NCBI GenBank assembly: GCA_027005735.1
Contig: JALTLF010000103.1
Span: 1-63,568, forward strand
From: Chromatiales bacterium
GTDB taxonomy: Bacteria > Pseudomonadota > Gammaproteobacteria > CAMYNG01
Direction: 5' to 3'
DNA: 63,568 nucleotides
How positions within the stretch are numbered: position 1 is the first letter of the stretch; each line of letters starts with the position of its first letter. The notes under the pieces are model-generated. The model saw only the letters and a program-made list of their open reading frames with translations. It did not search any database and was not told the origin of the DNA. This document shows, piece after piece, positions 1,214 through 62,431 of the stretch. The position numbers were made by a program, and so were the translations under genes.

Positions 1214-1897
1214 ATGCCCTACCTCGTGCTGCTGGTACTCATCCTTGCCGCCATCTACCTGCCCAACTTCTGGGCGCAACACACCTTCAGGCGCTACGCC
1301 GGTGAACGCGAGGACATCCCCGGCAGCGGCGGTCAACTGGCGCGCCACCTGCTGGATCGCTTCGAGATGGGGGAGGTAAAAGTCGAAACCACCGAGGCCG
1401 GCGATCACTACGACCCGCAGGCGCGCGTGGTGCGCCTGAGTCCGGACAACTTCAACGGCCGCTCCCTGACCGCCATCGCCGTGGCCGCCCACGAGGTGGG
1501 CCATGCCATCCAGCACCACCGTGGCGAACGCCTGCTCGCCCTGCGCACGCGACTGGTGGGCAAGGCCAATGCCGCGCAGAAACTGGGGGCCGGGATCCTC
1601 ATGGCCGCGCCGGTGCTGATGCTGGTGTCACGCTCGCCGTGGATAGGCCTGTTGATGCTCGCCGCCGGACTGCTCAGCATGGGCGCGGCCACCGTGGTGC
1701 ACCTTGTCACCCTGCCAGTGGAGATCGACGCGAGCTTCGGCAAGGCCCTGCCCATCCTCACCGAGGGCGACTACGTGCGCGAACGGGACCGGCCGGCCGT
1801 GCGCCGCATCCTCAGGGCCGCGGCCTTTACCTACGTTGCCGCCTCGCTGGCCAGCCTGCTCAACATCGCACGCTGGATCGCCCTGTTCCGGCGCTAA
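1214..1897 (+). CDS. Membrane zinc metallopeptidase (YugP-like)
   Basis: DHYDP motif, AAHEVGHA (HExxH), TLPVEIDAS and AAAFTYVAA; the TAA stop is the left end of MITE copy 1. Confidence 0.85.
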   Translation: MPYLVLLVLILAAIYLPNFWAQHTFRRYAGEREDIPGSGGQLARHLLDRFEMGEVKVETTEAGDHYDPQARVVRLSPDNFNGRSLTAIAVAAHEVGHAIQHHRGERLLALRTRLVGKANAAQKLGAGILMAAPVLMLVSRSPWIGLLMLAAGLLSMGAATVVHLVTLPVEIDASFGKALPILTEGDYVRERDRPAVRRILRAAAFTYVAASLASLLNIARWIALFRR

Positions 1898-2102
1898 ATA
1901 CGTGTTCCGAATTCCCGATCAACTGAGAATAAGCGGATTGCCCTATCTGCCTGTCTCTCGCCGGGGTGGTGTTTACGGACACGCGGTACATACGTCCCTG
2001 TACGCTCGACAGCCGCTTCCCTGCGGCTGACGGTCCGTAAACACCACCCCGGTGAGAGCCTGATGTCGGTAAACTGTAGTGGAATTCGAAACACGTATTT
2101 AG
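1894..2102. mobile_element. Palindromic MITE-like element, copy 1 (subtype A)
   Basis: 22-bp terminal inverted repeats CTAAATACGTGTTCCGAATTCC / GGAATTCGAAACACGTATTTAG; internal 26-bp inverted repeat and central CAGCCGC/GCGGCTG hairpin; homologous copies at 5801, 36542, 40282 and 63373. Confidence 0.85.
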
Positions 2103-5800: not shown

Positions 5801-6008
5801 CTAAATACGTGTTCCGAATACCCGATCACCCTGGAATAGCCGGATTGCCTCGTTTGCCTGTCTCTCTCCGGGGCAAGGTTTACGGACACGCGGTACATAC
5901 GTCCCTGTACGCTCGACAGCCGCTTCCCTGCGGCTGACGGTCCGTAAACCTTGCCCTGGAGAGAGTTCGCACCTGTAAACTGTACTGGAATTCGGAACAC
6001 GTATTTAG
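5801..6008. mobile_element. Palindromic MITE-like element, copy 2 (subtype B)
   Basis: CTAAATACGTGTTCCGAAT...ATTCGGAACACGTATTTAG, 208 bp; the right end forms the TAA of speA. Confidence 0.85.
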
Positions 6009-8910: not shown

Positions 8911-9240
8911 GAGCTCCGTCCCGGCGCGAAGTTTAGCGCAGATCCATCGCGGCGAGGGCGCGGCTCCTACGGATCGGCGAAACCCCTTACTGCTGCAGGA
9001 ACGCTGCCTCGACGCGATTGCCCGGCACCGCTGTCGCCGCGAGGGCGCGGCTCCTACGGATCGGCGAAACCCCTTACTGCTGCAGGAACGCTGCCTCGAC
9101 GCGATTGCCCGGCACCGCTGTCGCCGCGAGGGCGCGGCTCCTACGGATCGGCGAAACCCCTTACTGCTGCAAGAACGCTGCCTCGACGCGATTGCCCGGC
9201 ACCGCTGTCGCCGCGAGGGCGCGGCTCCTACGGATCGGCG
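8907..9240. repeat. GTAG-type REP cluster / BIME-like array with 87-bp tandem period
   Basis: Unit starts at 8952, 9039, 9126 and 9213; contains the reverse complement of GTAGGAGCCGCG-CCCT-CGCGGCGA alternating with a degenerate forward REP (GCAGGAACGCTGCCTCGACGCGA); the first REP overlaps the speE stop. Confidence 0.85.
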
Positions 9241-21876: not shown

Positions 21877-22191
21877 TTAGCTCCGCGACGGTCGGTTGCC
21901 GCCCGAGTCATCGAGAACAGGCTCAACCTCACGATGAGGACGGGCAATAATGTGCGCCGCTACCAGGCCATCGCCAACGCGCTCGCAGGCATCTGCGCCG
22001 GCACGGACGGCGGCATTTACTGCGCCGGTTTCGCCGCGAACGAGAACGGTGACATAGCCGCCACCGACAAACTCCCGCCCGATAAGGCGAACTTCTGCGG
22101 CCTTGGTCATGGCGTCCGCCGCTTCGATGGCGGGAACCAATCCGCGCGTTTCAATCATACCCAGTGCAATGCCAAAGTTTTCATTGGCCAT
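21877..22191 (-). CDS. csoS1: Carboxysome hexameric shell protein CsoS1
   Basis: GIALGMIETRGLVPAIEAADAMTKAAEV...HIIARPHREVEP. Confidence 0.97.
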   Translation of the reverse strand: MANENFGIALGMIETRGLVPAIEAADAMTKAAEVRLIGREFVGGGYVTVLVRGETGAVNAAVRAGADACERVGDGLVAAHIIARPHREVEPVLDDSGGNRPSRS

Positions 22192-22233
22192 GGCAAAATC
22201 TCCTGTTCATTCAGTTAAATTCAATACCCGGCA

Positions 22234-22542
22234 TCAGGCCTTGGCTGCGTTGCCGCCTGTAGGCAATACCGGCTCCACTTCACGGTGAGGGCGAGCGATG
22301 ATGTGTGCGGCAACCAGCCCATCACCTACACGCTCACAGGCATCTGCGCCGGCACGTACCGCCGCGTTAACAGCACCCGTCTCACCGCGAACCAGTACGG
22401 ACACATATCCGCCACCGACGAATTCGCGCCCAATGAGACGAACCTCGGCCGCCTTGGTCATGGCATCGGCGGCTTCAATCGCCGGCACCAGACCTCGCGT
22501 CTCAATCATTCCCAAAGCAATACCATAGTTGTCGTTAGCCAT
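22234..22542 (-). CDS. csoS1: Carboxysome hexameric shell protein CsoS1 (paralog)
   Basis: Near-identical BMC domain with a different C-terminal tail. Confidence 0.97.
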   Translation of the reverse strand: MANDNYGIALGMIETRGLVPAIEAADAMTKAAEVRLIGREFVGGGYVSVLVRGETGAVNAAVRAGADACERVGDGLVAAHIIARPHREVEPVLPTGGNAAKA

Positions 22543-22606
22543 TTTCGTGTCTCCTTCTGACTCGGTTGTTTAACTAGAAACTCGTGTTACATCGGGAAGA
22601 AAGAAC

Positions 22607-22864
22607 CTAAGATTGTTCTTCCTTCCAGAAATCTATAATTCCGCAGATCGTCAGATCTGTCAGCACCTCGTAATCGCCGGTCGCATACCTGGCTGCCGAT
22701 CCCATTGCCGTGAATACCCAGTTGCCTTCTCGGCAACCCACCGGATCGACCGCCACCTGGCGCTTTCCTGTTTTTACGTTTCGCAGAACCCTAAGGCTCG
22801 CATGTTCCAGACCAGAGATCCGCTGAGTACAGACGAGAGGGGCTTCCACCTGCAAAATCTCCAT
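22607..22864 (-). CDS. csoS4B: Carboxysome vertex pentamer CsoS4B
   Basis: MEILQVEAPLVCTQRI, VAVDPVGCREGNWVF and DLTICGIID. Confidence 0.92.
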   Translation of the reverse strand: MEILQVEAPLVCTQRISGLEHASLRVLRNVKTGKRQVAVDPVGCREGNWVFTAMGSAARYATGDYEVLTDLTICGIIDFWKEEQS

Positions 22865-22868
22865 GGTT

Positions 22869-23120
22869 CTATCTCCCTTCCGGCGGCCAGTGATCGATGA
22901 TCCCTACAATGGTCAGATCACTCGGATAATCCTTGCTGCCCGCGGCTTCACGCGCCGCGGAACTCCCCACGCATATAACCCAGTCACCCGGCTTGCAACC
23001 CACTGCATCGACGGCCACAGCAGACGCGCCACCATCGTTGACGACCTGCAAATGCCTATGACCCAAACCTGGTATGCGATTGGTCGAGACCAGAGGCCCT
23101 TCTACCTGGCAGATTTTCAT
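22869..23120 (-). CDS. csoS4A: Carboxysome vertex pentamer CsoS4A
   Basis: MKICQVEGPLVSTNRI, AVDAVGCKPGDWV, GSSAAREAAG and SDLTIVGIIDHW. Confidence 0.93.
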   Translation of the reverse strand: MKICQVEGPLVSTNRIPGLGHRHLQVVNDGGASAVAVDAVGCKPGDWVICVGSSAAREAAGSKDYPSDLTIVGIIDHWPPEGR

Positions 23121-24646
23121 CAATGCGCCCCCACTGAACTCTGTGCATATACAGACGAACCCAGAACTTCTATCCGCTCCCCGGCAGCGCAATCGCGGAT
23201 TGCCTGCAAGGTATGAAACAAACCTTTTTTTACCAGTTCTTCGTAACGCGCCTCGAGGGCTTCTGCCACTCGCCTGCAACTGGTAGCGGCTCGCTCGCGC
23301 GCACCTGGCACATGGCCGTGGTAATCGAAACGAATTACGACTGGAACCGGCAGCCCATGCGCGACATTCAGTCCGGTAAATATCTTTATGCCCACGTCCA
23401 GATCGGCTGCCCCTTCCTCGACCGTGTTCATATATGTGAAGTATGTGAGATTGCGTATCTGAATTTCTTCAAAGCCAATTCCGACCCCGATAAATCGCTC
23501 TGCGTGTCCGATATCCGGGTATGCGCCCCGGTAATTCCGTCTGACATACTCGAGTTGAGAAATATTGTTCGTCACCAGGCGACATACCAGATCAATCATG
23601 CCGGGCGTCGCGCCACTGCTGGCAGCGCGGACCGTTTTTTCAACCGTCACCATGGCCTGGTCGGCATTCATGCCACTCGTGGCCGCGTAAACTTTGCCCG
23701 TATCGACAAAAGTGTCGATGTCAATTTTTCCATTCTCGTCGGCAACGTGGATACGAATGGAATCTGTATCTGTATCCAGGCCAATCAACAGGAGATCGAT
23801 GGAGGCCCCGCAACAAAAACTGTTTTCCACAGCCTGCTGAAATGCATACAGGCTTTTCCGCCCGGCCTCAGACGCGCGGCGCGTATCTGAACCGTGGGCT
23901 GCACAGCCTTCGTGCTCCGGATCGCCAGAGCTGAAATGATAGACGACGGCCTTGAGATAGCGCGTTGGCTTGTCCGCGGTATCAGGGCGACCCTCACGAT
24001 AACGAAAGAACTCCGTCTCGATCCATTTCTCCAGGCTGTCCTCAATGTCAAACATCGCGCCTGCATATGATTTCCGCCTGACTTCCCGGTAAGGCAGTCG
24101 CAACACGTAGCTTATTACGTGCGCAAGCCTTCCATCGGCACAGGGTGAAACGTCCATCGTATGGAACCCACACCGCAACAGAAATGACTGGAAGTCCTCG
24201 TCTGTGTCAATATCCTGTCGGGTAAAGAAATCGTCGCTAAAGCGCCGGTATGTCTCGAACATGCACCAGGCATACAGGCCACGCATGTCCAGCTGATTAA
24301 CCCACGCATCTGCAAGTATTTGGCAGGGCAACTCAAAACCCAGTTGCTTGCGCGCCAGTTCCTGTGCCCTTTCTTCAAAGTTCCCCTCGTGCTGCAAGGC
24401 CGAAATCTGTCTCAATACGGGAACGATGTTGTCAAACGCATCTTTGACACGTTTTTCGTAGTTGAACAACTGCTGGTTCTGACGCTCGTTACACAAGGGA
24501 TGTGCTGCCCCGTCCGAAACAGCACGCGAAAAGGCGTGCCCTGCACCATCCGGGCGCACGGATTCCGCCCGCGCCGGCGCACCTGAGGCATTGATCGGCA
24601 TCGACCACCTCCGTGTACGTGCTGCTTTTCGTCGTGAACCCAACAT
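23120..24646 (-). CDS. csoS3: Carboxysomal carbonic anhydrase CsoSCA (CsoS3)
   Basis: HPLCNERQN, VSPCADGRL and YHFS..HEGCAAH zinc ligands. Confidence 0.95.
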   Translation of the reverse strand: MLGSRRKAARTRRWSMPINASGAPARAESVRPDGAGHAFSRAVSDGAAHPLCNERQNQQLFNYEKRVKDAFDNIVPVLRQISALQHEGNFEERAQELARKQLGFELPCQILADAWVNQLDMRGLYAWCMFETYRRFSDDFFTRQDIDTDEDFQSFLLRCGFHTMDVSPCADGRLAHVISYVLRLPYREVRRKSYAGAMFDIEDSLEKWIETEFFRYREGRPDTADKPTRYLKAVVYHFSSGDPEHEGCAAHGSDTRRASEAGRKSLYAFQQAVENSFCCGASIDLLLIGLDTDTDSIRIHVADENGKIDIDTFVDTGKVYAATSGMNADQAMVTVEKTVRAASSGATPGMIDLVCRLVTNNISQLEYVRRNYRGAYPDIGHAERFIGVGIGFEEIQIRNLTYFTYMNTVEEGAADLDVGIKIFTGLNVAHGLPVPVVIRFDYHGHVPGARERAATSCRRVAEALEARYEELVKKGLFHTLQAIRDCAAGERIEVLGSSVYAQSSVGAH

Positions 24647-24669
24647 GGTTTTCAGTGTTTCCGGTTTCC

Positions 24670-26925
24670 TTAGCCGCGAGCCCCACCGGAATAGGTCACC
24701 AGGGACCCCTTCTCAGTATTGCCGCTACTGCCCGTGACCTTGCTGCTCGGCACAGGCAGTTCTTCATTACGCTTGGCGGCCAGTTCCATAGCCATCGACG
24801 ACGAATTACCACGGCGGGTAGGGTTCCGCTTCGTCGCGGACAGTCCTTCGGTACCGGTAACGCGCTCGTTACGGTCCCAGTCGTCGCCCGTAATTCGGAG
24901 TCCAGCGTCCTGACCCTCTCCCGTTACCCGCGACTTGATACGTTCTTCAACCACTGTCGTGACCTGCGGAGCCACCGGGGGTCCACCGTTCCCAAAGCGC
25001 GCTTCTTCCGTCCCGGTTACCTTGCCGTCGGCCTTGCCAAACGGCCCGGTAATTTGGCCTTTCTCGTATTTCGTACCCGTTACCGCCTCATGTTCCGCCG
25101 GCGCACGGGAAGCATGGCTCGGTGCCCCGACGCTGAACTGACCCCAGGGCGTCTCTCCCAGTTTCTGTGGAAAATCCGGGCTGGAACTGTCTGCCGGCAC
25201 ACCCGGGCAGGCATTGGCAAACTGATCAGCACCGACGTACGGCGTACCCGTGAGCGGCTCGCAGGCGCCCTTGTCAGCGCCAGTCAGCACGCCATTGAGA
25301 CCCGGCTGCTGGCCGGTGATCGGCATACCCGGCGTCGCACGACGCTGCGCGCTCCGCTCCCGCGCGATGAGCTGTTGGCCAGGCGGACAGTATTCCTGGT
25401 AGTTCTCCACCCCGGCATACGGTGTTCCCGTTACTGACTTGCACGTCCCAGGCTCGTCACCAGTTACCCTGGTATCACGGCCGGTCAGGGTACCGGTCAC
25501 GGGATTTTCCTTTAGCGTTGCCGACACCCCGACCTTGCGGTCGGTTGCCTTCGGCGTGGTGTTACAGAAGGTGCTGTACTGTTCCTGGCCGACATAGTCG
25601 TCACCTGTCACGTTGCGGCAACTGCCCGGTTCGTCACCGGTAACACGCTGGTTACGTCCCACCAGGGTCCCGGTTACGCTGCCGCCCCGCAGGGTACTGC
25701 TCACGCCGACCTTTTCCGGCGCGCGGCCACCATTGCCCGACTGCATGACCGACGTGCCAGTCAGTTCCCGTGTTGAACCCGACTCGTCGCCGGTCACCTT
25801 TTCGGAGCGACCCACATTGTTGCCGGTAACTGTTTTTCCCCTGCGTGTTTCCGAGCTCGTGATCTTGGGCGGCCCCGCTTCGACACTTGTATTGCAGAAT
25901 TCCTGCACCTGCCCCGCGCTCACGTACTGATTTCCGGTCACGCGTTTGCAGGTACCCGGTTCGTTTCCGGTTACCCGGGCACTACGATCCAGCCTGTTAC
26001 CACTCACGGTATTACCTGTCGCTGTCGAGGTAACCTGAACCTTGGCCGGCGATCTGGGTACTTCCGCCTGACAGAATTCCCGGAAAATTTCCGCACCCAG
26101 GTATTCTGTGCCAGTGACAGGACGACAGGTACTCGGCTCGTCACCAGTGACGGTGCTGCTGCGGCCAACAATGGTGCCGGTCACGGTCTGGCCGTGGCTC
26201 GTTTGACTTGCGCCGACCTTCCAGGGCGCATCCTCCGCCCCTGCGCTTTCCTTGCCGGGACGGATACGACCACTGGGTCGACACTTGCTGTCCGCACTGC
26301 CACTATCGCACTTGCCACGCGTGCTGCGCTCTTCGCGAATTGAACGCGCGAGTTCCCGCCCGGAAATATTCGGGTTCGTTGCGCGCGCAGTCTGGGCAGC
26401 GCTCGGGCCGTTCCCGGTCAGCGCCGCCTTGCCACGTGTCGAGAGGGCGATACGACGAGCGAGAGATGCCGCACGAGCCGGGTTTTCAATCTTCCTGCCG
26501 GCACGTATCACTGGCGCAGGGGATGCGACACCGGTGGCCGCAGAAACCTCCGACCGTTCCTTGCTCGCCTTACAACCGCAACCACATCCGGACTTTTCAG
26601 CTGCAGGGCCAGACTCGCTACTTGCCCGCACCGGCGCCGTTGTATTGCCAATTTCGTCGCTACGTGTACGGTCCTGGCTGACAACAGATGCCTTGCCACC
26701 GACCGACATGGCACGGCGGCGCGCCAGAGAATACTGGCGGGTTGACATGGCCGTTCCGGTGCCCGCGGCGCCCGCACTACTCGCCGTGTTCGCCGCTGGG
26801 TCGACTGTGGACGAGGCATTCTTGCTGCCCTGTCGGCTCTGCAGACCCGCCTTGCCTTTCTCGTAGGAAAGACGGCGACGCTCCATGGCGATCTGGCGTG
26901 CGGTCTTGTTAGCAGTTTGTGTCAT
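24670..26925 (-). CDS. csoS2: Carboxysome scaffold CsoS2
   Basis: Four N-terminal R-rich helix repeats, six VTG-rich M repeats, C-terminal LVTYSGGARG. Confidence 0.96.
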   Translation of the reverse strand: MTQTANKTARQIAMERRRLSYEKGKAGLQSRQGSKNASSTVDPAANTASSAGAAGTGTAMSTRQYSLARRRAMSVGGKASVVSQDRTRSDEIGNTTAPVRASSESGPAAEKSGCGCGCKASKERSEVSAATGVASPAPVIRAGRKIENPARAASLARRIALSTRGKAALTGNGPSAAQTARATNPNISGRELARSIREERSTRGKCDSGSADSKCRPSGRIRPGKESAGAEDAPWKVGASQTSHGQTVTGTIVGRSSTVTGDEPSTCRPVTGTEYLGAEIFREFCQAEVPRSPAKVQVTSTATGNTVSGNRLDRSARVTGNEPGTCKRVTGNQYVSAGQVQEFCNTSVEAGPPKITSSETRRGKTVTGNNVGRSEKVTGDESGSTRELTGTSVMQSGNGGRAPEKVGVSSTLRGGSVTGTLVGRNQRVTGDEPGSCRNVTGDDYVGQEQYSTFCNTTPKATDRKVGVSATLKENPVTGTLTGRDTRVTGDEPGTCKSVTGTPYAGVENYQEYCPPGQQLIARERSAQRRATPGMPITGQQPGLNGVLTGADKGACEPLTGTPYVGADQFANACPGVPADSSSPDFPQKLGETPWGQFSVGAPSHASRAPAEHEAVTGTKYEKGQITGPFGKADGKVTGTEEARFGNGGPPVAPQVTTVVEERIKSRVTGEGQDAGLRITGDDWDRNERVTGTEGLSATKRNPTRRGNSSSMAMELAAKRNEELPVPSSKVTGSSGNTEKGSLVTYSGGARG

Positions 26926-27005
26926 GTTTATCTCCACTACACCTGTGTCGTACTTGGCCTTCTTTTAGATCCTTTCCTCCGAGATAGGCTTGTTGGTTAC
27001 ACTGC

Positions 27006-27344
27006 CTATCGCGCGTCGTAAACGACGAAGCACACGCCCTGACTCTGGGTATAGCTGTCATAGCCTATCAGGCGCACATGATGATCCGGATACGCACGGT
27101 GACAGGCCTCCATTTCAGCAACGACGTTGTTCAGGTTGCTCTCACCAAAAAACGGCAGCTTCCACATGGTCCAGTAGTGATCAAAAGCCTGCGTCGGATG
27201 CGCGTGTTCAATGGCCGGCGTCCATCCTTGTGAAATGATGTAGTTTATCTGAGCGTAGATCTCGTCTTGGCTTAACCTGGGCAGAAACCCGAAAGTCTCC
27301 AGCGTATGTTGTGTATGGTAATCACCTGCGGTTTGATGTTGCAT
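27006..27344 (-). CDS. cbbS: Rubisco small subunit, form IAc
   Basis: [16 protein letters not shown] and [13 protein letters not shown]. Confidence 0.97.
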
Positions 27345-27398
27345 CTTGTTATCCTCTGAATAAATTTACTAAATTCTTCCAGCCATCCAATTACAAGC

Positions 27399-28811
27399 TC
27401 AACCAACGTCCAGCTTGTCAACGGTTTCAAATTCGAATTTGATTTCCTTCCAGGTTTCCATTGCCATGGCCAGCTCAGGACTATGCTGCGCTGCCGTAGT
27501 AAGGATTTCCTTACCCTCTTTCTCGAGGTGACGTCCCTCGTTACGGGCCTTAACACATGCCTCTAGTGCAACGCGGTTGGCGGCGGCACCTGCGGCGTTG
27601 CCCCAGGGGTGGCCCTGGGTACCGCCACCGAACTGAAGCACGGAATCATCGCCGAAGATGGTGACCAGAGCCGGCATGTGCCAGACATGGATACCACCGG
27701 ATGCCACGGCGAACACGCCGGGCATGGAGCCCCAGTCCTGATCAAAAAACACGCCACGCGAGCGATCTTCCGGCACGAACGATTCGCGCAGCTGATCTAC
27801 AAAGCCCAGGGTCGAGTTGCGGTCACCTTCGAGCTTGCCGACAACGGTTCCGGTATGCAGATGATCACCGCCGGAGAGGCGCAGGCACTTGGCCAGAACG
27901 CGGAAATGGATACCGTGCTTGGGATGGCGGTCGATTACCGCGTGCATGGCGCGGTGAATATGCAGCAGCATGCCGTTCTTCCGACACCAGTTCGCCAATC
28001 CCGTATTGGCAGTGAAACCACCAGTCAGGAAATCATGCATGATGATTGGCATACCAAGTTCCTTGGCAAACTCGGCGCGCTCGTACATGTCTTCGGGGGT
28101 CGCAGCTGTCACGTTTAGATAATGGCCCTTGCGTTCCCCAGTTTCCTGCTCAGCCTTCATGATGGCCTCGGCTACAAATTCAAATCGGTCGCGCCAGCGC
28201 ATGAACGGCTGCGAGTTGACGTTTTCGTCATCCTTGGTCAGGTCGAGTCCGCCACGCAGGCACTCATAAACCGCACGGCCATAGTTTTTGGCTGAGAGGC
28301 CCAGCTTGGGCTTGATGGTACAACCGAGCATCGGACGGCCATACTTGTTGAGGCGATCGCGCTCCACCTGGATCCCGGCTGGCGGCCCGCCACAGGTCTT
28401 GATATAGGCAATGGGAAAGCGAATATCTTCCAGGCGGAGGTGCTTGAGCGCCTTGAAACCGAATACGTTACCCACGAGCGAGGTCAGGACATTGACGATG
28501 GAGCCCTCCTCGAACAGGTCGATGGGATAGGCCACAAACGCATAGAAGGACTCCGAATCCCCCGGTACATCTTCGATTCGGTATGCGCGGCCCTTGTAGT
28601 ATTCGAGATCGGTGAGCAACTCAGACCATACCGTACTCCAGGTACCGGTGGATGACTCCGCCGCGACTGCCGCGGCGACCTCTTCACGCGGCACGCCCGG
28701 CTGGCCCGTCACCTTGAAACAGGCCAGCAGGTCGGTGTCCAATGGCACATAGTCGGGGGTCCAGTACTTCTCGCGGTACTCCTTCACACCCGCTTCGTAT
28801 TGTTTAGCCAT
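27399..28811 (-). CDS. cbbL: Rubisco large subunit, form IAc (carboxysomal)
   Basis: [11 protein letters not shown] active-site motif; [10 protein letters not shown]; heads the cso operon. Confidence 0.98.
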
Positions 28812-30452: not shown

Positions 30453-30779
30453 TCAGCTGCGAAATTTTACCATGCGGGTCACCTGAATCTCGCTGACAAA
30501 TACCACGCCGGAGTGCTCACTGAAAAACGGCTCTAGCCCTTCCAGTATGGGATCAACGAGATCCTCCGGAACGGCAACAAGTATCATTATCAGCACATCA
30601 TCTTCGTTGAACATCAGGTGACCTTCATGGAAACCATGGCTGCCCTTGCCGGACAGGTTGTTGACGATGGTGTAGCCGGTAACGCCAGCACGATCAAGAA
30701 TGTCAGTAGCAAAAGCCTGGTGCGCTCCTTCCAGGATAATCTCGAGTTTTTTCAGTGTATTCAGCTTATGAATGTTCAT
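30453..30779 (-). CDS. SbtB-like P-II family protein
   Basis: KKLEII, GYTIV..LSGKGSHG and SGVVFVSEIQV; start coupled to the dabA stop (TAATG). Confidence 0.75.
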   Translation of the reverse strand: MNIHKLNTLKKLEIILEGAHQAFATDILDRAGVTGYTIVNNLSGKGSHGFHEGHLMFNEDDVLIMILVAVPEDLVDPILEGLEPFFSEHSGVVFVSEIQVTRMVKFRS

Positions 30780-33700
30780 TACGCGCAATACTCCTCAGAA
30801 TAAACCGATGTCAGTTCATTGCCGACCGGCTGTGCGTGCCATTCCCCATCAATGTAGATACAGGCTTTTTCCGTTTCGGGATCAATAACTACCATGCGCA
30901 ACCAGTTGTTGCGAACCAGGTTTTTGACCGCCACTACGCTATCTATGGCACGCCGCGCATGTTCAAATGGCGCCTCGACAATTGTTATGAGCCTTATCGG
31001 CTGGTGATAAGGCTCCCCATCCCTGAATACCGTCTGCGCTGGCAGGCCGGTCCTCAAGTCGCTCAAGTTACCCGTCATAACGCCAACACGGCCGGCAACA
31101 TTGTGATAAACCTTGCTGCCACTACCATAACGTTCATTATCTACTGTTGAAAAATAATGCTCCATATTGATCCACTGACCTACCACTAGCGGCCCGGCAA
31201 AAATATTTTCCAGCAGCAGGCCGCGGCGATCCAGACGATAGTCATAGGAATGAAGAAACGCGCGACCAGCGAGCTGCAGGCGCCGCGTCAGGTTGCGACC
31301 GCCGATAATAAACCAGGCATTACCGGATAAACCCCATTCCGGCCGCACCTGAGACCAATCCAGCGATTTTACTTGCATCTTCCGATACGACGCTTCGAGG
31401 CTCTCTGCCGAACCGCTGCCTGTGTCGTTCAAGGTGGGCAGACGCTCTCTCGCACACAGGCGTGACGCTGCATTCAGAGCATTTTGCAGGCGATCAAGAT
31501 AAATCAGATGAGAACCCGGCATAAGGTCTAGGTCGTGCATCGTGATCTCGTCCGTTGTCGTGTTATGCAATGCAGGCACAAACCATGCGTCGTCCGGGAT
31601 CGCGAACCCCGTTTCATTGAGTCTTCTGCGAACCTCCGGTTTGTTGGCCATTTGTGCCAACACGCGCGCGCTTACCAATCCATGGTTCCCGCCACAGGCA
31701 CCGCAGTCAAGCGCGGATTCGTAGGGGTTGTTCTCTGAACTGCTGCCATGGCCAACCAGAAGAACGAACCTCGAGAAATCACGCGTCAAACCAATTGATT
31801 TCAGCGCGCTCCCAACAAAATTTGCCTGTTCATCCAAGGTGAAACCGATGCGCCCGAGCTCTTCCATTTGTAACTGGGAGTATGCCGGATTTATGCGATA
31901 GTCCTCACGCAGGCACTCTATTAATTTGGTAAGATCCTCCTCTGTCATACCAAGCGCAGAGGCTCGATGAAGCTCAGGCTCGGCATGGCCCATGGCCATC
32001 TCTCGAAGTTCGCGAACAAAATCATCAGTTAGGGTCGCGCTATCGATCTCTAACTCCTGCTCTACCGCCTTGGCAATCACCGCGCGTTGGACAGCACGCA
32101 CGATGGAGTCGGCCTGTTCTCGCGTTAACTTGTCGAGCATAAGCCGTGTCTTCGGCGCGTCTCTGTTCAGTTTTTGGCGCCATCTGTTATAGGCATGGGG
32201 CGTTACCGTCTTGCCAATCATATCAAATCCGAATAGCAGCCCGATCGCTTCAACGGTCACGAATGGCGTAAGAATCGACTCCTTGAGAGAATGTAGTGCC
32301 TTCTCAAGCGCGCCGAGCGTAGCTGTCGAATCAGGTACGCTCATGGGCATTTCCAGGACCATGTTCCTTGGTGTCAACAACGCAGGACAAAGGTGGATCT
32401 CACTTCCCCTGCCCAGGGCCATCAGACTCACCGGCACACCAAAGAAGCCCGCCATGCCAAATGTCTGATAATCCCCGACCGTTTCCAGCTGTCTGCGAAT
32501 GCGCTCAGACCGCGTGTCGATACAGAAAATTGCCTGTGCAAAAGGTCGCTTTTCGCGCGGCTCAGGTGGCGCCAGGCTGATTCCCTTTATCAGATCTGAC
32601 ATCGCAGCCGCTTCCATGGCTTTCAGCCAGATCATGCCCTCATGTTTTTCGAACTCCCGCAGAGTATTAAAGAGGCTGGCAAACGCCTCGTCGGGTAGAT
32701 TTTTTAGTTCCTTCGCGCCTTTCATGTGATCAAACAGGAAAGAGAGCATTTCCGCCTGCGAACGCGCATTCTCGACACGTTTGGCTGCAAAGTATTCACT
32801 GAAGAACGCGGCGGGATCCTTTTTAGCCTTGCTTAGAAGTATTTTCTCTACGCGGTGAGCCATGCATGGCAGCACTTTGCCGCTATAGTATTCTCGCCGC
32901 AGCCACGCTTCCCGGGGTTGTGTCGTTATAAGCTCCATCACTTCGTCTCTGGTTGAGGCCAGGTGGTGGCGCCCGCGTTCGCCGAGCAGTGCCAGTGCCA
33001 GCGTAAGGCGAACGGCCAAGAAATCAACCAGATCCCCCGGATACTTGTTTGCCCAGAAATAATGTCTGGCCCCGGAGCGCCAGCGGATAAATCCGGCCCA
33101 TCCATGAAGACGTGCGATTTCACGCTCGAAATACCCCATCCAGTGTTCTTCCGGGATCTTCAAGGTGCGCATAACAAAGTCGATAATATCCTCAGGTTTG
33201 GCACCTGCCGCAAGAATCTTGCTAATGTCGAGACCCCGCAAAGACAGACGCACGTTGTGCTGCGCGACCTGGCGCCAGGAGGTAAAGAATCCTTGTTCCC
33301 GGTTCGGAAGTTTCCACACGGATTGACCTTCATCGAAGAAATCCAGGCAGCTTTTTATGACCAATTCGTCCAGGCTGGTACCAAGATCAGTGCCATAGAG
33401 AATATCGATGGCCTCGTACAGGGGCTTGGTTCCAAGCAGCTCCTTCTGCAATTCCGTCGCGATTGCGTCCGGATCAGGCTCTTCGCAGTCAGCCAGTTTT
33501 TCCCCTTTAATCGTTGCCTGTATGTCCTTAACTCTGGCCGTTCCCGTATCTTTGATAACCGGCTCCTTGATTTCTGTCAAGAGGTGCATAAGAGTAGCAC
33601 GCAAATCAATTCCTGGTATTTCGTTTCGACGGGAAACAAATCTGTCTACTTCTTCCTCCAGGTGGCGTCGATCTACCATGTTCAGCGACATATATTTCTG

Positions 33701-33901
33701 ATACGCGGAGCGCTCAAGGAAACCGAGCCCATTGAACAAGCGAGTTCCCTTCTCGACTGCCTTTTCAAAAGGCATCTGTTCCAGCCCATGCAAAGGGTTA
33801 TGATGGATAAATGTACGCATGGGCCAGAAAAACGGCACCGGCTCACCCGCCACGTACACCATGCTTCTGATCTTTAGGTGTTGTCCAAGTGTCGTACTCA
33901 T
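30779..33901 (-). CDS. dabA: Inorganic carbon transporter subunit DabA (DUF2309)
   Basis: FIHHNPL, FCIDTRSE, VGHGS and DCGACGG beta-CA-like ligands; YGSGSKVYHNV. Confidence 0.93.
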   Translation of the reverse strand: MSTTLGQHLKIRSMVYVAGEPVPFFWPMRTFIHHNPLHGLEQMPFEKAVEKGTRLFNGLGFLERSAYQKYMSLNMVDRRHLEEEVDRFVSRRNEIPGIDLRATLMHLLTEIKEPVIKDTGTARVKDIQATIKGEKLADCEEPDPDAIATELQKELLGTKPLYEAIDILYGTDLGTSLDELVIKSCLDFFDEGQSVWKLPNREQGFFTSWRQVAQHNVRLSLRGLDISKILAAGAKPEDIIDFVMRTLKIPEEHWMGYFEREIARLHGWAGFIRWRSGARHYFWANKYPGDLVDFLAVRLTLALALLGERGRHHLASTRDEVMELITTQPREAWLRREYYSGKVLPCMAHRVEKILLSKAKKDPAAFFSEYFAAKRVENARSQAEMLSFLFDHMKGAKELKNLPDEAFASLFNTLREFEKHEGMIWLKAMEAAAMSDLIKGISLAPPEPREKRPFAQAIFCIDTRSERIRRQLETVGDYQTFGMAGFFGVPVSLMALGRGSEIHLCPALLTPRNMVLEMPMSVPDSTATLGALEKALHSLKESILTPFVTVEAIGLLFGFDMIGKTVTPHAYNRWRQKLNRDAPKTRLMLDKLTREQADSIVRAVQRAVIAKAVEQELEIDSATLTDDFVRELREMAMGHAEPELHRASALGMTEEDLTKLIECLREDYRINPAYSQLQMEELGRIGFTLDEQANFVGSALKSIGLTRDFSRFVLLVGHGSSSENNPYESALDCGACGGNHGLVSARVLAQMANKPEVRRRLNETGFAIPDDAWFVPALHNTTTDEITMHDLDLMPGSHLIYLDRLQNALNAASRLCARERLPTLNDTGSGSAESLEASYRKMQVKSLDWSQVRPEWGLSGNAWFIIGGRNLTRRLQLAGRAFLHSYDYRLDRRGLLLENIFAGPLVVGQWINMEHYFSTVDNERYGSGSKVYHNVAGRVGVMTGNLSDLRTGLPAQTVFRDGEPYHQPIRLITIVEAPFEHARRAIDSVVAVKNLVRNNWLRMVVIDPETEKACIYIDGEWHAQPVGNELTSVYSEEYCA

Positions 33902-34653
33902 TCTATAGCTCCCGAGCAGTACACTCCTACCACCGCAAGCCCCAAAAGGGAGATAACATTCACCAAAAGGTAGCCATGCCCAAGGTCACCAACCGCCCTC
34001 CGACCGCTACCGGAAAACAGACCCTGCAGGAGATTGGCAGCGGCCCATGTCCACAATAACCAGACACTGCCAACCGCGAACACGATGAACAGATTCGCCG
34101 GCATCGAGTTCATGATCATCAACAGGAGTGCGAAGAAAGATGGAAAAACCGGTGTTGCAATGATGCCAAGTATTACCATCACCACGATGGCCGAAAATCG
34201 GGGGGCGGATCGTGCCAGCCCTCCATACAGGCCCAGGTAGGCGGCACCAAAACGCGCTTCGAGCCAGCGACACAAAAATACCAACAAGATCAGTGGCAGG
34301 CTCATGCCCACGGCAAACAGAGCGAGGTACCGAGTATCAACTCCGTAGCCTACGCTTATCCACAAAAGGGACCAGGAAGATGTGGCAATGAAAGCCGTCC
34401 ACAGGCCGATGTCCCTCAATGCCAGGGCGCGCATAGCGTACATAAGCGCTGTCACTGTCCCCCAGAGGGGAAGCCAGCTGGGTATCTCCTCCATAAATTC
34501 GACGACCAGCACAATGCCCACCTGTGGCCACGCCAGAATGAGCAAGGCGCGCAACATTGGTCCTCCGGCACGCACGAACAGGCCGTTGAACAGCATACTC
34601 AGCGGAAACAGGGGCAGAAAAAACCCTGCCAACAGTACGATCCCCAGCTCCAT
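33898..34653 (-). CDS. Extra membrane subunit of the DAB operon (NuoM/MrpD half-antiporter-like)
   Basis: Polytopic; YGGLARSAPRF...LGIIATPVFPSF resembles the NuoM/MrpD C-terminal motif; abuts dabB and overlaps dabA. Confidence 0.7.
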   Translation of the reverse strand: MELGIVLLAGFFLPLFPLSMLFNGLFVRAGGPMLRALLILAWPQVGIVLVVEFMEEIPSWLPLWGTVTALMYAMRALALRDIGLWTAFIATSSWSLLWISVGYGVDTRYLALFAVGMSLPLILLVFLCRWLEARFGAAYLGLYGGLARSAPRFSAIVVMVILGIIATPVFPSFFALLLMIMNSMPANLFIVFAVGSVWLLWTWAAANLLQGLFSGSGRRAVGDLGHGYLLVNVISLLGLAVVGVYCSGAIE

Positions 34654-36333
34654 CTATCTCCACCTCAGGGCAACATTCAAACGCGCAGCTGTGCGGAGCA
34701 GAATCCGAGAGACCCAGGCATAGATATCGGCCAGATAAAACTCACGCGAAATCATCGCATACAAGATCAGCCGTACACGCCCAGGATCTCTACTCCCTGT
34801 CGTTCCATTTTTTTCCGAGTAGTAGGTCAACAGCCAGCCTGCTACGATGATCAGCGTCGTTGTCACGACCAGAATATCGAACCAGAAGATGTCTATACTC
34901 GAGGCATGATGCATAAGTTCCAGGAACTGCGCATCGGGATACAGGAAATTCTCGAAGACATGGCTAATGAGTGCATAACCCAACACTACGATAACAAATG
35001 ACGATAGCACCATCGCAAGCAAGCGCCCGGGTCGTTCGGTTCGCATGCGGTAAGTTGCAAAAATCAGCTGGGCGCCAGTCACCCATCCGAAGAACAATAG
35101 CACCACGGCACCCTGCTTCTGGAAAAAATCCTGCTGTACAGCTAGATGGGCAAGAACCAGCACCACAACGGGTATGACAAGTGTTACGGCGGCCATAAAC
35201 AGCCATGGCGGTTGACGTCTTGCAGGTTGTTTCTCGATCACAAATGTATAAAGTTCATCCTTTGGAATCCCGTCATCGTGTCGCGCTTCACCAATTACGC
35301 TACCGGCACCAAGAAAGAGCGCGCCTTTGAAGAGTCCGTGGGCAATCAGGTGGTATATGGCGAGCGAGAATGCGCCGACGCCACATTCCATAATCATGAA
35401 ACCCATCTGCCCCATGGTTGAGTAGCCAAGCGATTTCTTAATGTCATTTTGCGCGAGCATCAGAACCGAACCGATTACTGCCGTAACCAGCCCTACAATG
35501 AACAAAAGGTGCAAAATATCTCCTGAGTACACGAAGACGGGCGCAAAACGATTTATCAGAAACCCGCCAGCATTAACGATGCCAGCATGCATAAGCGCGG
35601 AAACGGGGGTAGGACCGTCCATCGTGTATGGCAACCAATTGTGCAGAAGAAACTGGGCCGATCTGGCGAAGGCCGCCACCGACAGGAGGATAGCGGCAGC
35701 CTGCGTCGCCGGGATACCGAGGATACTCATTGCAGCGGGTTCTTCACTCACCTGCTCGAGAAGATCCGGGATCGACCAGGTACCGTACGTATCAGCCAGA
35801 ATCACCGCAGCCAACACCAGGGCTATATCACCAAGGCGATAGGTCAGGAATGTCCAGAAAGCGTAACGCAGACTGTTCGGCCTGCAAGTGTCATGACCAA
35901 GGAGAAAATAGAGCAGTACTCCAATCAAATGCCACGCGATAAGCAGTGTAAGCAAATCCCCTGCGGCGACCATAACCAGAAGGGTGGCAGTCATCAGGTC
36001 AAGGAGCACAAAGAAACGTGCGTAGCCGGCTTCTTCCGCCATATACCTGATGGAAAACTTATGGACGATGAAGCTTATGCCGGCAATCAAGACGCCCATA
36101 ATCGCGCTTAGGGGATCTGCGAGCAGATATCCCCATGATCCAGCTATGCGTATACCAGCAAATTCATTGCCCTTCACCTCAAGCCCGAGTCCCACCAATG
36201 CCAGCAGGAATGTCAACAACGCTACCGATGTGCTTAGCCAGGCAACATGACGACGTAATTTCTCCTGGAACAGCAGAACCAGCACAGCCGAAAGGATCGG
36301 TAGAAGGGGTATTGCTGCAACCAGAAAATTCAT
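34654..36333 (-). CDS. dabB: Inorganic carbon transporter subunit DabB (NuoL-like)
   Basis: RSAQF..HNWLPYTMDGPTPVSALMHAG, DIKKSLGYSTMGQMG and HGLFKGALFL; in an operon with dabA. Confidence 0.9.
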   Translation of the reverse strand: MNFLVAAIPLLPILSAVLVLLFQEKLRRHVAWLSTSVALLTFLLALVGLGLEVKGNEFAGIRIAGSWGYLLADPLSAIMGVLIAGISFIVHKFSIRYMAEEAGYARFFVLLDLMTATLLVMVAAGDLLTLLIAWHLIGVLLYFLLGHDTCRPNSLRYAFWTFLTYRLGDIALVLAAVILADTYGTWSIPDLLEQVSEEPAAMSILGIPATQAAAILLSVAAFARSAQFLLHNWLPYTMDGPTPVSALMHAGIVNAGGFLINRFAPVFVYSGDILHLLFIVGLVTAVIGSVLMLAQNDIKKSLGYSTMGQMGFMIMECGVGAFSLAIYHLIAHGLFKGALFLGAGSVIGEARHDDGIPKDELYTFVIEKQPARRQPPWLFMAAVTLVIPVVVLVLAHLAVQQDFFQKQGAVVLLFFGWVTGAQLIFATYRMRTERPGRLLAMVLSSFVIVVLGYALISHVFENFLYPDAQFLELMHHASSIDIFWFDILVVTTTLIIVAGWLLTYYSEKNGTTGSRDPGRVRLILYAMISREFYLADIYAWVSRILLRTAARLNVALRWR

Positions 36334-36541: not shown

Positions 36542-36749
36542 CTAAATACGTGTTCCGAATACCCGCTCACCCTGGAATAACCGGATTGCCTCGTCTGCCT
36601 GTCTCTCTCCGGGACAAGGTTTACGGACACGCGGTGCTTACGTCCCTGTACGCTCGACAGCCGCGTCCCTGCGGCTGACGGTCCGTAAACATTGCCCCGG
36701 AGAGAGTTCGGACCCGTAAACTGTAGTGGAATTCGGAACACGTATTTAG
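36542..36749. mobile_element. Palindromic MITE-like element, copy 3 (subtype B)
   Basis: Full 208-bp copy with both terminal inverted repeats, upstream of dabB. Confidence 0.85.
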
Positions 36750-39322: not shown

Positions 39323-40285
39323 ATGAGAACCTACACGCAGCTTATCCAACAGGAACGATACCTAATTTATATCCTGAAGAAAGAGAAATATAGCCAGGCG
39401 CGGATTGCCGCGCTTCTGGGGCGCGATAAATCCACCATCAGTCGGGAGTTGCGGCACAATCGGGGCCAGAAAGGCTAGCGGCCCAAACAGGCTCACAAGC
39501 GGGCGCTTTAGCGGCGTCTCGGCAAGGCTCAGCCCCGTATTGGGGGGCGAGTCTGGCATCGGGTCAGGGTGCTGCTCCGCAAGGAATGGCGTCCTGAGGA
39601 GGACGCAGGGCGGATAGCGATGGAACAAGGCGTCTCTATCAGTCATGAGTGGATTTACCAATACATTTATGCGGATAAACGCTCAGGCGGCAACCTGTAC
39701 CGGTATCTGCGCTGCCAGAAGGCTCGACGTAAGCGTTGTGCCGCCTATGACCGGCGTGGCTGTATCCCCAACCAGGTCTCGATTGACGACCGCCCGGCCA
39801 TTGTCGACAGCAGGCGACGCTTCGGCGACTGGGAAGGCGATACCGTGATCGGCAAGGGCCACCGGCGGTGCCCTGGTGACGCTGGTCGAGCGCAAGTCGC
39901 TGTATACCATTATCCGGTCCGTCCTCCACAAGACGGCCAGGGCGGTTCGAGAGGCTGTCGTAGAGGGACTGACCACCTATATCGACTGGGTGCATACCAT
40001 TACCTATGACAACGGGCGGGAGTTTGCCGACCATGAAGGCATGGCCAGCGACCCTGATGCTCGTATCTATTTCACGCACCCTTATGCCTCCTGGGAACGC
40101 AGACTGAACGCGAATACCAATGGCCTCGTCCGGCAATACTTTCCGAAAGACCGGGACCTGACCACCGTCACTCAATATGAAGTCGAGCAGACCATGGATA
40201 AACTCAATCACCGCCCAAGGAAGTCGCTGGGCTATCGGACACCCTATGAAGTCTTCTTCAACACCATGACTTCATTAACCGTTGC
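39323..40285 (+). pseudogene. IS30 transposase pseudogene
   Basis: STISRELR, ISHEWIY, WEGDTVIG and TYDNGREF; in-frame TAG at 39476 and 39509; +1 frameshift near 39866; NENTNG changed to NANTNG. Confidence 0.9.
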
Positions 40286-40339
40286 CCCGGAGAGAGTTCG
40301 GACCTGTAAACTGTAGTGGAATTCGGAACACGTATTTAG
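40282..40339. mobile_element. MITE copy 4, right-hand 58-bp fragment (subtype B)
   Basis: TTGCCCCGGAGAGAGTTCGGACCTGTAAACTGTAGTGGAATTCGGAACACGTATTTAG, nearly identical to the end of copy 3. Confidence 0.85.
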
Positions 40340-62217: not shown

Positions 62218-62370
62218 ATTGGCTCCTCCTGTCGAGAAAGTTCGAACTTCTTTTGCAAATGGTCCCCGTCGGCGCCAGCCGGCGGAGAGAGTTCGTCCGT
62301 GCAGGCCACCCAATCACGTCGGGACGTAGCTGCCCTGCATCAGGGAGCCCAAAGTATAAGCGCCCATTAC

Positions 62371-62418
62371 ATAAAGTAAACTCAATAAAAATGATTGAAT
62401 CCATAAGGTATTACTTAT
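62371..62418. promoter_or_regulatory. CbbR binding region between divergent cbbL and cbbR
   Basis: AT-rich; ATAAG-GTATTA-CTTAT at 62403-62418 (TAA-N8-TTA) plus weaker adjacent sites. Confidence 0.7.
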
Positions 62419-62431
62419 AGTATATTTCCCC

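Follow-up and report, generated by a model that had tools for sequence, protein, structure and literature searches.

Introduction

YPAL is a 167-168-bp intergenic mobile repeat described from Yersinia and Erwinia only, which has internal inverted repeats, lacks TA ends and duplicates 3-26 bp of its target at or close to sites of dyad symmetry. Co-transcription with upstream genes has been reported (in the wording of that paper 'co-translated'), and the repeat may influence how stable the upstream transcripts are (PMC2229807). A common fold is strongly predicted for its copies (RNAz P = 1.00; PMC2267715), and the YPAL/RU-2 repeats have been treated by De Gregorio et al. 2006 and Delihas 2007/2008. 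Ysr224 is a multicopy, temperature-responsive small RNA (sRNA) of Yersinia (PMC9029176, PMC12112432). Here we analyse a 208-bp repeat at positions 5801-6008 of a 63,568-nt stretch of DNA from a Chromatiales bacterium (contig JALTLF010000103.1 of assembly GCA_027005735.1; the whole stretch is referred to as the window). We can state with high confidence that the repeat is a non-autonomous, TA-inserting miniature inverted-repeat transposable element (MITE), usually found in C-TA-G and often in a stop codon, with a YPAL-type module as its cargo. By sequence comparison this three-helix module is homologous to the core of Yersinia YPAL/RU-2 and to Ysr224.

The loops of the module bear on a second group of described systems. 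The SELEX (systematic evolution of ligands by exponential enrichment) consensus for the post-transcriptional regulator CsrA is RUACARGGAUGU, with ACA and GGA invariant and GGA placed in a hairpin loop (PMC4347634). For RsmU of Xanthomonas, an RNA derived from a 3' untranslated region, few GGA motifs suffice to bind RsmA (PMC7694677).

The window holds three full and two partial copies of the 208-209-bp repeat, which we number copy 1 to copy 5 from left to right. The element under study is copy 2 (5801-6008, plus strand), recognised by its terminal-repeat matches and its fold. A first-pass annotation had placed copies 1 and 5 in subtype A and the other three copies in subtype B, a division that holds in our alignment. 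From paired changes in the arms of copies 1 and 2 it had proposed that the fold is under selection and that the repeat may be a structured, ncRNA-like element rather than an inert MITE, with arm-to-arm conversion as the alternative.

Results

A self-contained three-helix module inside the repeat

The interior of the repeat is a module of three helices, 76-126 nt in length and ~110 bp as cargo of the window MITE. We call the strand on which the loops of its two small hairpins, P2 and P3, read GGA the GGA strand (the minus strand in the window) and the opposite one the UCC strand. The long stem P1 comprises 28 paired positions (median). Counted from the junction, its offsets 1-9 and 17-19 are semi-conserved, and the positions in between vary freely. 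On one side only, the GGA strand carries the segment AGC-N'-UAC-AGGGAC-GUA-UUYAC-N-GCGU, which forms the 3-bp hairpin P2, and P3 is a 9-10-bp hairpin with a conserved hexaloop. In copy 2 the 5' arm of P1 lies at 5862-5887 (plus strand) with its partner at 5940-5965, the P2 segment at 5890-5912 (minus strand, GCG-UAC-AGGGAC-GUA-UGUAC-CGC) and P3 at 5914-5939 (minus strand, CGACAGCCGC / GCGGCTGACG, with a U.U (A.A) mismatch and the loop AGGGAA).

A search of one genome for each prokaryotic species, made with 19 fixed bases from the conserved inner segment, located the module at at least 119 loci in many gammaproteobacterial genera. Carriers among the matches listed are Marinobacter, Stenotrophomonas, Microbulbifer, Rheinheimera, Cellvibrio, Halopseudomonas, Aquisalimonas, Halomonas, Acidiferrobacterales and many metagenome-assembled genomes (MAGs), and terminal repeats of the window type occur, among the matches listed, in none of these at least 119 loci. 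A covariance model built from 89 distinct copies (R1) detects 142 copies at E < 1e-4 in ~770 kb of DNA and just one in 200 kb of unselected Marinobacter DNA. It scores the core of copy 1 (1969-2044, minus strand) with 91.3 bits and that of copy 2 (5876-5951, minus strand; 12-bp inner arms and the three-way junction) with 90.5 bits (E 1.9e-18), and also detects that of copy 3 (36617-36692, minus strand). No copy was found in E. coli genomes, and in the plasmid collection the module occurs only in two Yersinia records.

The module occurs alone or within other repeats in many genomes, and short MITEs with the same terminal repeats as the window element (loci L001, L005 and L013 of our collection) are without it. 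The fold thus belongs to a self-contained cargo module, which is separate from the window MITE and much older. The first-pass view of a nested fold stands as far as conservation by compensatory change in all three helices is concerned, and the element is more than an inert MITE; the fold is, however, that of a shared cargo module and not of this MITE. In solo modules of Marinobacter the arms fade into a weak TTGGGG/CCCCAA motif without a crisp boundary.

Paired changes in the window copies

The arms of copy 1 read ...CCGGGG-TGGT-GTTTACGGAC / GTCCGTAAAC-ACCA-CCCCGG and those of copy 2 ...CCGGGG-CAAG-GTTTACGGAC (5862-5887) / GTCCGTAAAC-CTTG-CCCTGG (5940-5965), exactly as first quoted. They differ in a 4-nt patch, TGGT versus CAAG in one arm, which is matched by ACCA versus CTTG in the other (in copy 2, CAAG at 5874-5877 pairs with CTTG at 5950-5953). 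This patch falls exactly in the freely varying stretch of P1. The claim that both arms changed together with pairing kept holds for the patch, but each of copies 1, 2 and 3 has one or two non-Watson-Crick arm positions, which are G.T in the first two of these copies and A.C and G.A in the third. Across the family the patch reads TGGT, CAAG, CGAC, CGCC, CGGC, AGGAC or TGGC, with a partner that matches or is mismatched by one step, and the variants of the window family are connected by single paired steps, with intermediates CGGC/GTCG in L084 and CAAG/ATTG in copy 3.

The CAGCCGC/GCGGCTG hairpin (5914-5939 in copy 2) and the 19-bp terminal stem are present in every full copy, in agreement with the earlier description. 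Copy 2 folds with -112.9 kcal/mol and z = -13.3 against dinucleotide shuffles (z = -10.1 for the opposite strand), and copy 1 with z = -11.9. Sequence identity of the core is high within the window family. The two window copies alone do not show selection; it is the large data set, with its short hairpins, loops and wobble asymmetry, that carries the case for it.

Covariation across genera

We scored covariation in a MAFFT alignment of the 89 copies that was not fitted to structure and in a model-fitted alignment of all 142. The score is 0.596 in the former (0.153 when shuffled, with 0 of 500 shuffles reaching the observed value, and at most 0.136 when the partner is slid by 1-3 columns) and 0.663 in the latter (0.155 shuffled, at most 0.099 slid). 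Paired cells amount to 91.9% and 93.8%, respectively, compared to 65-68% in shuffles (68.0% for the 89-sequence alignment), and here too 0 of 500 shuffles come up to the observed value. Changes on both sides are seen for 10 of 12 pairs in P1 and all 9 in P3 in the 89-sequence alignment and for 24 of 27 pairs overall in the 142-sequence alignment; across the two, the range is 20-24 of 27. RNAalifold recovers P1 and P3 independently.

The 3-bp stem of P2 is set by the search pattern in 98 of the 142 copies. Where the pattern is lacking (44 copies), UCC/GGA, CCC/GGG or CAC/GUG take the place of UAC/GUA in this stem, and the loop is still A-N-GGA-N; the change from UAC/GUA to CC./.GG is seen in 10-11 sequences (99.5% paired). 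Covariation is thus present in all three helices, bearing out what the first-pass annotation had expected of a selected fold. P1 and P3 have fully diverged in sequence between genera, while copies found with and without the pattern alike keep the loop motif, the junction and the architecture of P2. In these alignments, such persistence of unpaired nucleotides indicates long-term purifying selection and not recent spread.

The GGA strand and its two hexaloops

Wobble pairs are distributed unevenly between the strands. In 108 distinct elements there are 90 G.U-type pairs on the GGA strand versus 28 on the other; 48 elements have more G.U on the GGA strand and 17 show the reverse (binomial p = 1.5e-4). 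It is unlikely that a mutation bias linked to transcription or replication is the cause, since the elements have no preferred orientation relative to genes, and the asymmetry in wobbles without a preference in orientation therefore suggests that the single-stranded form of the GGA strand is what seems to be constrained. A frequent mismatch between N and N' is G.A on the GGA strand and C.U on the UCC strand.

On the GGA strand both small hairpins present the hexaloop A-N-GGA-N, closed by C and G, and GGA is kept in both loops in 140 of 142 copies. The minus strand of copy 2 reads CGUACAGGGACGU at P2, which resembles the CsrA SELEX consensus; P2 reads CUACAGGGACGU, and C-UACAGGGACGU agrees with RUACARGGAUGU at 10 of 12 positions. 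With GGA in the loop of a short hairpin and in the context A-N-GGA-N, the loops of P2 and P3 are of the CsrA type in these 140 copies, and we infer that they are candidate CsrA/RsmA binding sites. The distance from GGA to GGA is 26 nt in the standard module. As Mercante and co-workers are said to have found in 2009, bridging by a CsrA dimer needs GGA sites ~10-63 nt apart, so that the module would fit two-site bridging by one dimer.

The P3 loop is an expansion hotspot, with insertions of 30-110 nt at 63496-63568 of the window, at L037:494-770 and in L065, L074, L081, L095, L064, L137 and L020. One conserved expansion (GGTCGC...CTCTCGCGACA-CT.G-GCA.CC.TG) holds a CTAG-like site that is hit by another MITE in vent metagenomes. 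Several expansions add hairpins of the CAGGAUG type, some carry A-N-GGA-N hairpins on the opposite strand, and some variants of the module have four or more A-N-GGA-N hairpins.

Relation to YPAL, Ysr224 and other known elements

At gathering thresholds Rfam reports only a tRNA in the window. Under permissive settings, microRNA and signal recognition particle matches are hairpin noise and only Ysr224 (RF02770) is meaningful: it scores 22.1 bits on the window (plus strand, 5830-5943) and 26-42 on copies from Stenotrophomonas and Microbulbifer, compared to a gathering threshold of 70 and to 133.9 bits for a Yersinia plasmid copy used as control. The Rfam comparison proposed earlier thus reveals a homologue, but the window element stays under the threshold of its family. 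Ysr224 is the RNA-family record of half a YPAL, and its alignments to the window module and the Stenotrophomonas copies run from end to end; unlike the window module, its model lies on the UCC strand and spans the flank of YPAL, and the family is confined to Yersinia. In the other direction, R1 matches two Yersinia copies with 56.7 bits (E ~2e-10), and the published 168-nt RU-2 sequence (Delihas, PMC2759123) matches the Yersinia control copy and holds the same core.

YPAL/RU-2 shares the whole three-helix core, i.e. the P3 hairpin, the segment GAGCC-UAC-AUGGAU-GUA-UUUAC-GGCG and the inner arm, and part of its outer arm (ATCTGCCTGTTCTCTCC) resembles the window MITE. Both A-N-GGA-N loops are retained in the Yersinia relative despite ~15% divergence elsewhere. 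The two elements are also alike in their internal inverted repeats, GC-richness, location after genes and strongly predicted fold. They differ in their ends and size: YPAL has ~7-bp ends of the TGACAAA type, no TA and 167-168 bp, whereas the window element has 208 bp, 19-bp repeats and TA flanks, and those 19-bp repeats are the ones common to the module-less MITEs. The core is therefore homologous while the termini, the length and the duplications of 3-26 bp are not those of YPAL, and the window element is a relative of YPAL, not a member. A match to a described repeat family of known mechanism was one of the outcomes foreseen at the outset; YPAL/RU-2 and Ysr224 provide part of it, as described repeats homologous to the module. 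On a conjugative plasmid of Yersinia similis (L174:1127-1410 and 1420-1625) a YPAL copy adjoins a ryfA RNA (Rfam, 179 bits). A terminator hairpin (AAACCGCCTTTATGGCGGTTT) stands on either side of this copy as a 21-bp direct repeat, which exemplifies the long target duplications reported for YPAL.

The neisserial Correia/NEMIS elements and other MITEs of the IS630/Tc1-mariner type that duplicate TA are likewise small, with terminal repeats, TA ends, locations near genes, co-transcription and a long hairpin RNA (PMC2229807 Table 1). They share no sequence similarity with the window MITE; Correia elements, moreover, have an IHF site and RNase III cleavage, and are without the conserved internal three-way module. 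No IS630-type partner of the window MITE was found in the ~250 loci or the plasmid collection. CsrB, CsrC and RsmX/Y/Z have in common with the module hairpin loops that present A-N-GGA-N and match the SELEX consensus. In contrast to these RNAs, the module shows no sequence similarity to them, no Rfam match as one of them and no promoter and terminator of its own; it is multicopy, mobile and clamped by a 26-35-bp stem, and its binding of CsrA is a prediction. RsmU of Xanthomonas was rejected as a member, since its primer sequences show a different RNA.

REP/BIME palindromes and their RAYT enzymes are comparable as intergenic, multicopy palindromes with a GTAG-like tetranucleotide beside a hairpin (CUGUAGGCUCG and P3) and possible recognition as a single strand. 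In the module, however, the fourth base of this tetranucleotide (GTAG, GTAC, GTAA, GTAT) covaries with a partner and is thus part of a base pair, not of a fixed tag; an invariant GTAG or CGTC head is lacking, CGTC being absent from the Yersinia relative; the module is three to four times larger, and no RAYT gene lies nearby. Hammerhead, attC, dif and group II domain V structures were considered by eye and dropped because their defining motifs are absent. A literature search with the literal core sequence returned nothing. MITEs with conserved hairpins, and YPAL itself, are already known; undescribed in the searched literature are the distribution of the core beyond Yersinia, a three-helix covariation model with two invariant CsrA-type loops, the presence of the module on unrelated MITE chassis, and core flipping.

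Arm exchange and core flipping

Modules downstream of ubiX in Marinobacter provide orthologues with opposite cores. Between M. nauticus (L176/L147:2680-2800) and M. persicus (L177:2150-2300) the core is inverted, and the two modules share the inner arm and a derived extra core base. The other 78 of 80 Marinobacter species have no module downstream of ubiX, and at this site they are too diverged for boundaries or a duplication to be defined. The ubiX reading frame of M. nauticus continues into the arm of the element. The core is also inverted relative to the outer MITE in two MITE copies (L014 and L084) of the MAG closest to the window. Inverted cores among orthologues and MITE copies imply that the arms recombine, which also copies changes from arm to arm, and together with the near-perfect arms they give direct support to the alternative of arm-to-arm conversion that the first reading had kept in view. 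Two processes, selection on the fold and arm-to-arm exchange, jointly keep the long arms paired; pairing of the short hairpins and conservation of the loops need selection.

At 21 loci two modules face each other 200-470 bp apart, always with the UCC reading to the left and the GGA reading to the right on the top strand (L130:7297-7642 and 687-1072; L099:1347-1674; L079:5404-5702; L115:3570-3908; L059:2468-2936; and 16 more). The DNA outside the pair is a ~40-bp inverted repeat in L059 and L115, so these pairs look like larger MITE-like composites whose long ends include the module. In L058 (2290-3804) two inverted modules 1.4 kb apart enclose a higB-like toxin open reading frame (ORF; 2432-2767) and a higA-like helix-turn-helix antitoxin ORF (from 2777), both assigned by eye from the translations only.

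The outer element and its target site

The 208-bp repeat shows the generic features of a MITE: it is non-coding, has terminal inverted repeats and occurs in multiple dispersed copies with unrelated flanks, and the ORF list of the window contains none specific to it. Its terminal inverted repeats are 19 bp long and perfect (CTAAATACGTGTTCCGAAT; in copy 2 at 5801-5819 on the plus strand with the right partner at 5990-6008), and the terminal 17-mer has 8 matches in the window compared to 0.1 expected. Nearly all copies in the window and in other genomes are flanked by C-TA...TA-G. A scan of one genome per prokaryotic species showed that the same terminal repeat bounds elements of 85-277 bp with very different interiors in several uncultured Gammaproteobacteria. 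In L021:3075-3281 and L011:100-345 it encloses a second cargo with GAGCC-AGGGAT-GGCTC and TGCC-ATGGAC hairpins; within this MITE superfamily, hairpins with GGA loops are thus not limited to a single type of cargo. The plasmid collection holds no real match to the terminal repeat. Over the MITE, the summed contig word depth in vent metagenomes is ~25-50x that of the flank, with tens of copies per genome, and copies also lie at contig ends in related MAGs.

IS630/Tc1-mariner elements target CTAG and duplicate TA. In vent metagenome contigs a MITE is nested within a MITE at GCGACA-C-TA...TA-G-GCATCC, and uninserted homologues of this site read GCGACACTGG (or the CTTG form) or GCGACACTTG. This comparison supports a duplication of TA within a CTAG-like target, as suggested indirectly by one nested site. 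An orthologous empty chromosomal site was not recovered, and the vent contigs gave no clean joint for copy 2. One vent contig carries a variant that lacks 5845-5950, 106 bp which take in the left arm, the core and the first part of the right arm, with the joint at TTGCC repeats; it resembles a microhomology deletion that removes most of the module and leaves the MITE otherwise intact.

Copy 1 (1894-2102, plus strand) is a full-length subtype A element with C-TA...TA-G flanks (nhmmer 238.9 bits). Copy 2 lies between an arginine decarboxylase gene and an OmpA-like gene, both on the minus strand, and copy 3 (36542-36749, plus strand, subtype B) between the genes for fructose-bisphosphate aldolase and dabB, also both on the minus strand. 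Three genes of the window end at the TAA of a MITE terminus, namely a Zn-peptidase ORF (1214-1897; stop 1895-1897, copy 1), the arginine decarboxylase gene (stop 6005-6007, copy 2) and a LysR/CbbR-type ORF (62432-63376; stop 63374-63376, copy 5), which suggests insertion into the TA of TAG or TAA stop codons.

The two partial copies differ from their first description. Copy 4 (40276-40339, plus strand), counted at first among the subtype B copies, is only a 3' fragment consisting of a right-arm remnant and the right terminal repeat. It follows directly after a frameshifted IS30-family transposase (ORF pieces within 39323-40316), the end of which abuts and truncates it; this transposase lies in at least three frames (helix-turn-helix piece 39323-39478; DDE pieces 39569-40009 and 39876-40316) and was assigned by eye from motifs, as Pfam gave no match to the separate fragments. 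Copy 5 (63373-63568, plus strand, subtype A) is the 5' half of an element that runs off the window end. It is not truncated at CAGCCGC, as had been thought: after this motif (63495) it continues with a P3-loop expansion (GGTCGCTCCGGGC...CTCTCGCGACA) and then a nested MITE that begins with CTA at the window end. The full nested form of this type is seen in vent metagenome contigs, and related expansions in L037, L065 and L074.

Transcription and gene context

The module elements are intergenic and mostly downstream of genes, with only 5 of 81 between divergent genes. Metatranscriptome contigs, which are unstranded, cover the module core at several times the depth of the neighbouring gene, and one contig of 1565 nt runs from the upstream gene ubiX into the module of M. 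nauticus. Reads from S. maltophilia RNA-seq (a divergent strain, with unclear strandedness of the library) cover both modules of a pair. The module is thus present in RNA. In the same S. maltophilia data, joints at L099:1316-1424 and 1593-1665 skip 107 nt and 71 nt, each removing the left arm and core; these joints are asymmetric, and a strain difference, a paralogue or a reverse-transcriptase jump are all possible.

Surroundings of the window copies

The same DNA is also present in MAG GCA_027053495.1, which together with the carbon-fixation genes of the window points to a vent chemolithoautotroph as the source. An alpha-carboxysome operon encodes the form I RuBisCO large subunit, CsoS2, CsoSCA and two bacterial microcompartment shell proteins; there are further genes for a DabA/DabB-type inorganic carbon transporter, a beta-carbonic anhydrase, a class II aldolase and, beside a LysR regulator, a second form I RuBisCO. 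MITE copies lie at the borders of the gene regions 21877-28811, 30779-36333 and 60799-63376. Between ORFs at 8947-9240 there is a tandem array unrelated to the MITE, consisting of 3.4 copies of an 87-nt unit with 99% identity, GC-rich and with internal hairpins (GCCGCGAGGGCGCGGC).

Discussion

The explanation that we favour overall, although we would call its chances evenly balanced, is that the window MITE carries a YPAL-type module which acts in RNA through CsrA-type loops and whose pairing is maintained by selection together with arm exchange. We have moderate confidence in the core of this proposal, in which read-through from neighbouring genes would transcribe the module, and the module would act in the transcript as a stable hairpin and, when in GGA orientation, as a docking element with two sites for CsrA/RsmA. 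Elements located just after genes would be transcribed by read-through into untranslated regions, where the RNA may form a very stable hairpin that protects or punctuates the transcript, as reported for YPAL. When the GGA strand is transcribed (the minus strand in the window, which for copies 1-3 is the strand of the neighbouring genes), two GGA hexaloops 26 nt apart would be displayed in a geometry that one CsrA/RsmA dimer could bind. On this view every copy would serve as a portable site for CsrA or as a single unit in a distributed sponge, and it may affect the neighbouring genes. Selection on the fold would act on the short hairpins and tolerate G.U on the GGA strand, while recombination or template switching between the DNA arms would copy changes across and occasionally flip the core.

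A number of observations weigh against this proposal. The orientation of the GGA strand is unbiased, with 23 sense and 27 antisense elements in tandem contexts, and the upstream gene is co-oriented in 56 of 90 cases, yet the opposite strand is served equally often (all counts from a crude gene caller). No promoter or terminator is conserved outside the arms, sequence conservation ending ~35 nt from the core on both sides, so the module is not a free-standing sRNA gene. Rfam puts the Yersinia relative Ysr224 on the UCC strand. P1 is 92.5% Watson-Crick with ~3% G.U in the 108 distinct elements, more perfect than most functional RNA helices, which fits what homogenisation at the DNA level might produce. 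These four points, i.e. no orientation bias, no private promoter, the strand of Ysr224 and the near-perfect arms, argue against reading the module simply as an sRNA gene and hold our confidence down. In addition, the wobbles of the window-type MITE (copies 1 and 2 and L084; three pairs) are G.T on the UCC strand, and in 98 of 142 copies the search pattern itself dictated the 19 nt of the P2 segment, the conservation of which is thus overstated there. The TA duplication comes from a single indirect comparison. Finally, a search for the terminal repeat at 1-3 kb spacing found no autonomous transposon in the window, the ~250 loci and the plasmid collection, the carriers' whole genomes not being part of this search.

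The main rival, possible but in our view rather unlikely, holds that the structure acts as DNA only. A cruciform or folded strand would be recognised by a recombinase or transposase, as for REP/RAYT, IS200/IS605 ends and attC, the arms being kept complementary by intrastrand template switching and arm recombination and the GGA loops serving as protein contacts on single-stranded DNA. In line with this, the long arms are nearly perfect in their Watson-Crick pairing, the core flips between the arms, and orientation is unbiased relative to transcription. It would also accommodate the 21 inverted module pairs, which resemble long terminal repeats of composites with the outer inverted repeats of L059 and L115, the modules flanking the higBA-like cassette in L058, and the 3-26-bp duplications of YPAL at dyad symmetries, which are unusual for DDE transposases (PMC2229807). 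As folded DNA tolerates G.T wobble too, even the strand asymmetry fits a single-stranded DNA substrate. However, in none of the ~250 loci is a candidate enzyme gene linked to the modules, and the 3-bp P2 and 7-10-bp P3 stems with their 6-nt loops are too small for recombinational homogenisation and yet covary. Moreover, what both loops keep is exactly the consensus of RNA sites for a protein that these taxa conserve, the module is found in RNA, and in the window it is passive cargo of a TA-inserting MITE, where a mobility function of its own would be redundant.

It is improbable that the repeat is an ordinary MITE whose hairpin is a generic 3' stabiliser or terminator, whose loops lack a partner and look conserved from recent spread, and whose patch reflects drift and gene conversion. 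The position after genes, the precedents of YPAL and ERIC and the high core identity within the window family are consistent with such an origin, and the search pattern accounts for part of the apparent conservation; but loops, junction and P2 architecture are kept where P1 and P3 are fully diverged between genera, also in pattern-free copies, and the Yersinia relative keeps both A-N-GGA-N loops despite its ~15% divergence. Least probable, and very unlikely in our judgement, is a functional multicopy sRNA on the UCC strand whose N-UCC-N-U loops pair in trans with GGA, Shine-Dalgarno-like or CsrA sites. In its favour, the Ysr224 model was derived on this strand from Yersinia RNA-seq and describes a multicopy, temperature-responsive RNA (PMC9029176, PMC12112432), transcription of the upstream gene at ubiX of M. 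nauticus yields the UCC strand, and the wobbles of window copies 1 and 2 are G.U on it. Against it, wobbles favour the GGA strand 48 to 17 across the 108 elements, the frequent N/N' mismatch is C.U on the UCC strand and G.A on the GGA strand, no target complementarity is conserved beyond 5-6 nt, and Ysr224 covers only half a YPAL and may be a processing product.

Returning to the RNA-acting module, a bolder extension, which we regard as doubtful, is that the YPAL-type core is a portable, high-affinity CsrA/RsmA docking module that has spread through Gammaproteobacteria on several unrelated MITE chassis and as solo or paired copies, forming a mobile post-transcriptional regulon and distributed sponge. 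If this were true, transposition and core flipping would add, remove or switch CsrA control or titration at many transcript ends, and would reach lineages with few known CsrA antagonists.

Bacterial MITEs are usually seen as genus-specific junk with generic hairpins. The Yersinia-only YPAL and Ysr224 are, by the homology found here, the tip of a module common to many orders of Gammaproteobacteria. If its loops bind CsrA, mobile DNA would be a route to rewire the main post-transcriptional regulator, and many 'multicopy sRNAs' from RNA-seq would be explained; if its fold is a DNA substrate, it would point to a structure-recognising mobilisation system. Either way, the family merits an Rfam or Dfam record, and the module provides a clean natural system in which selection on pairing may be separated from homogenisation of a palindrome.

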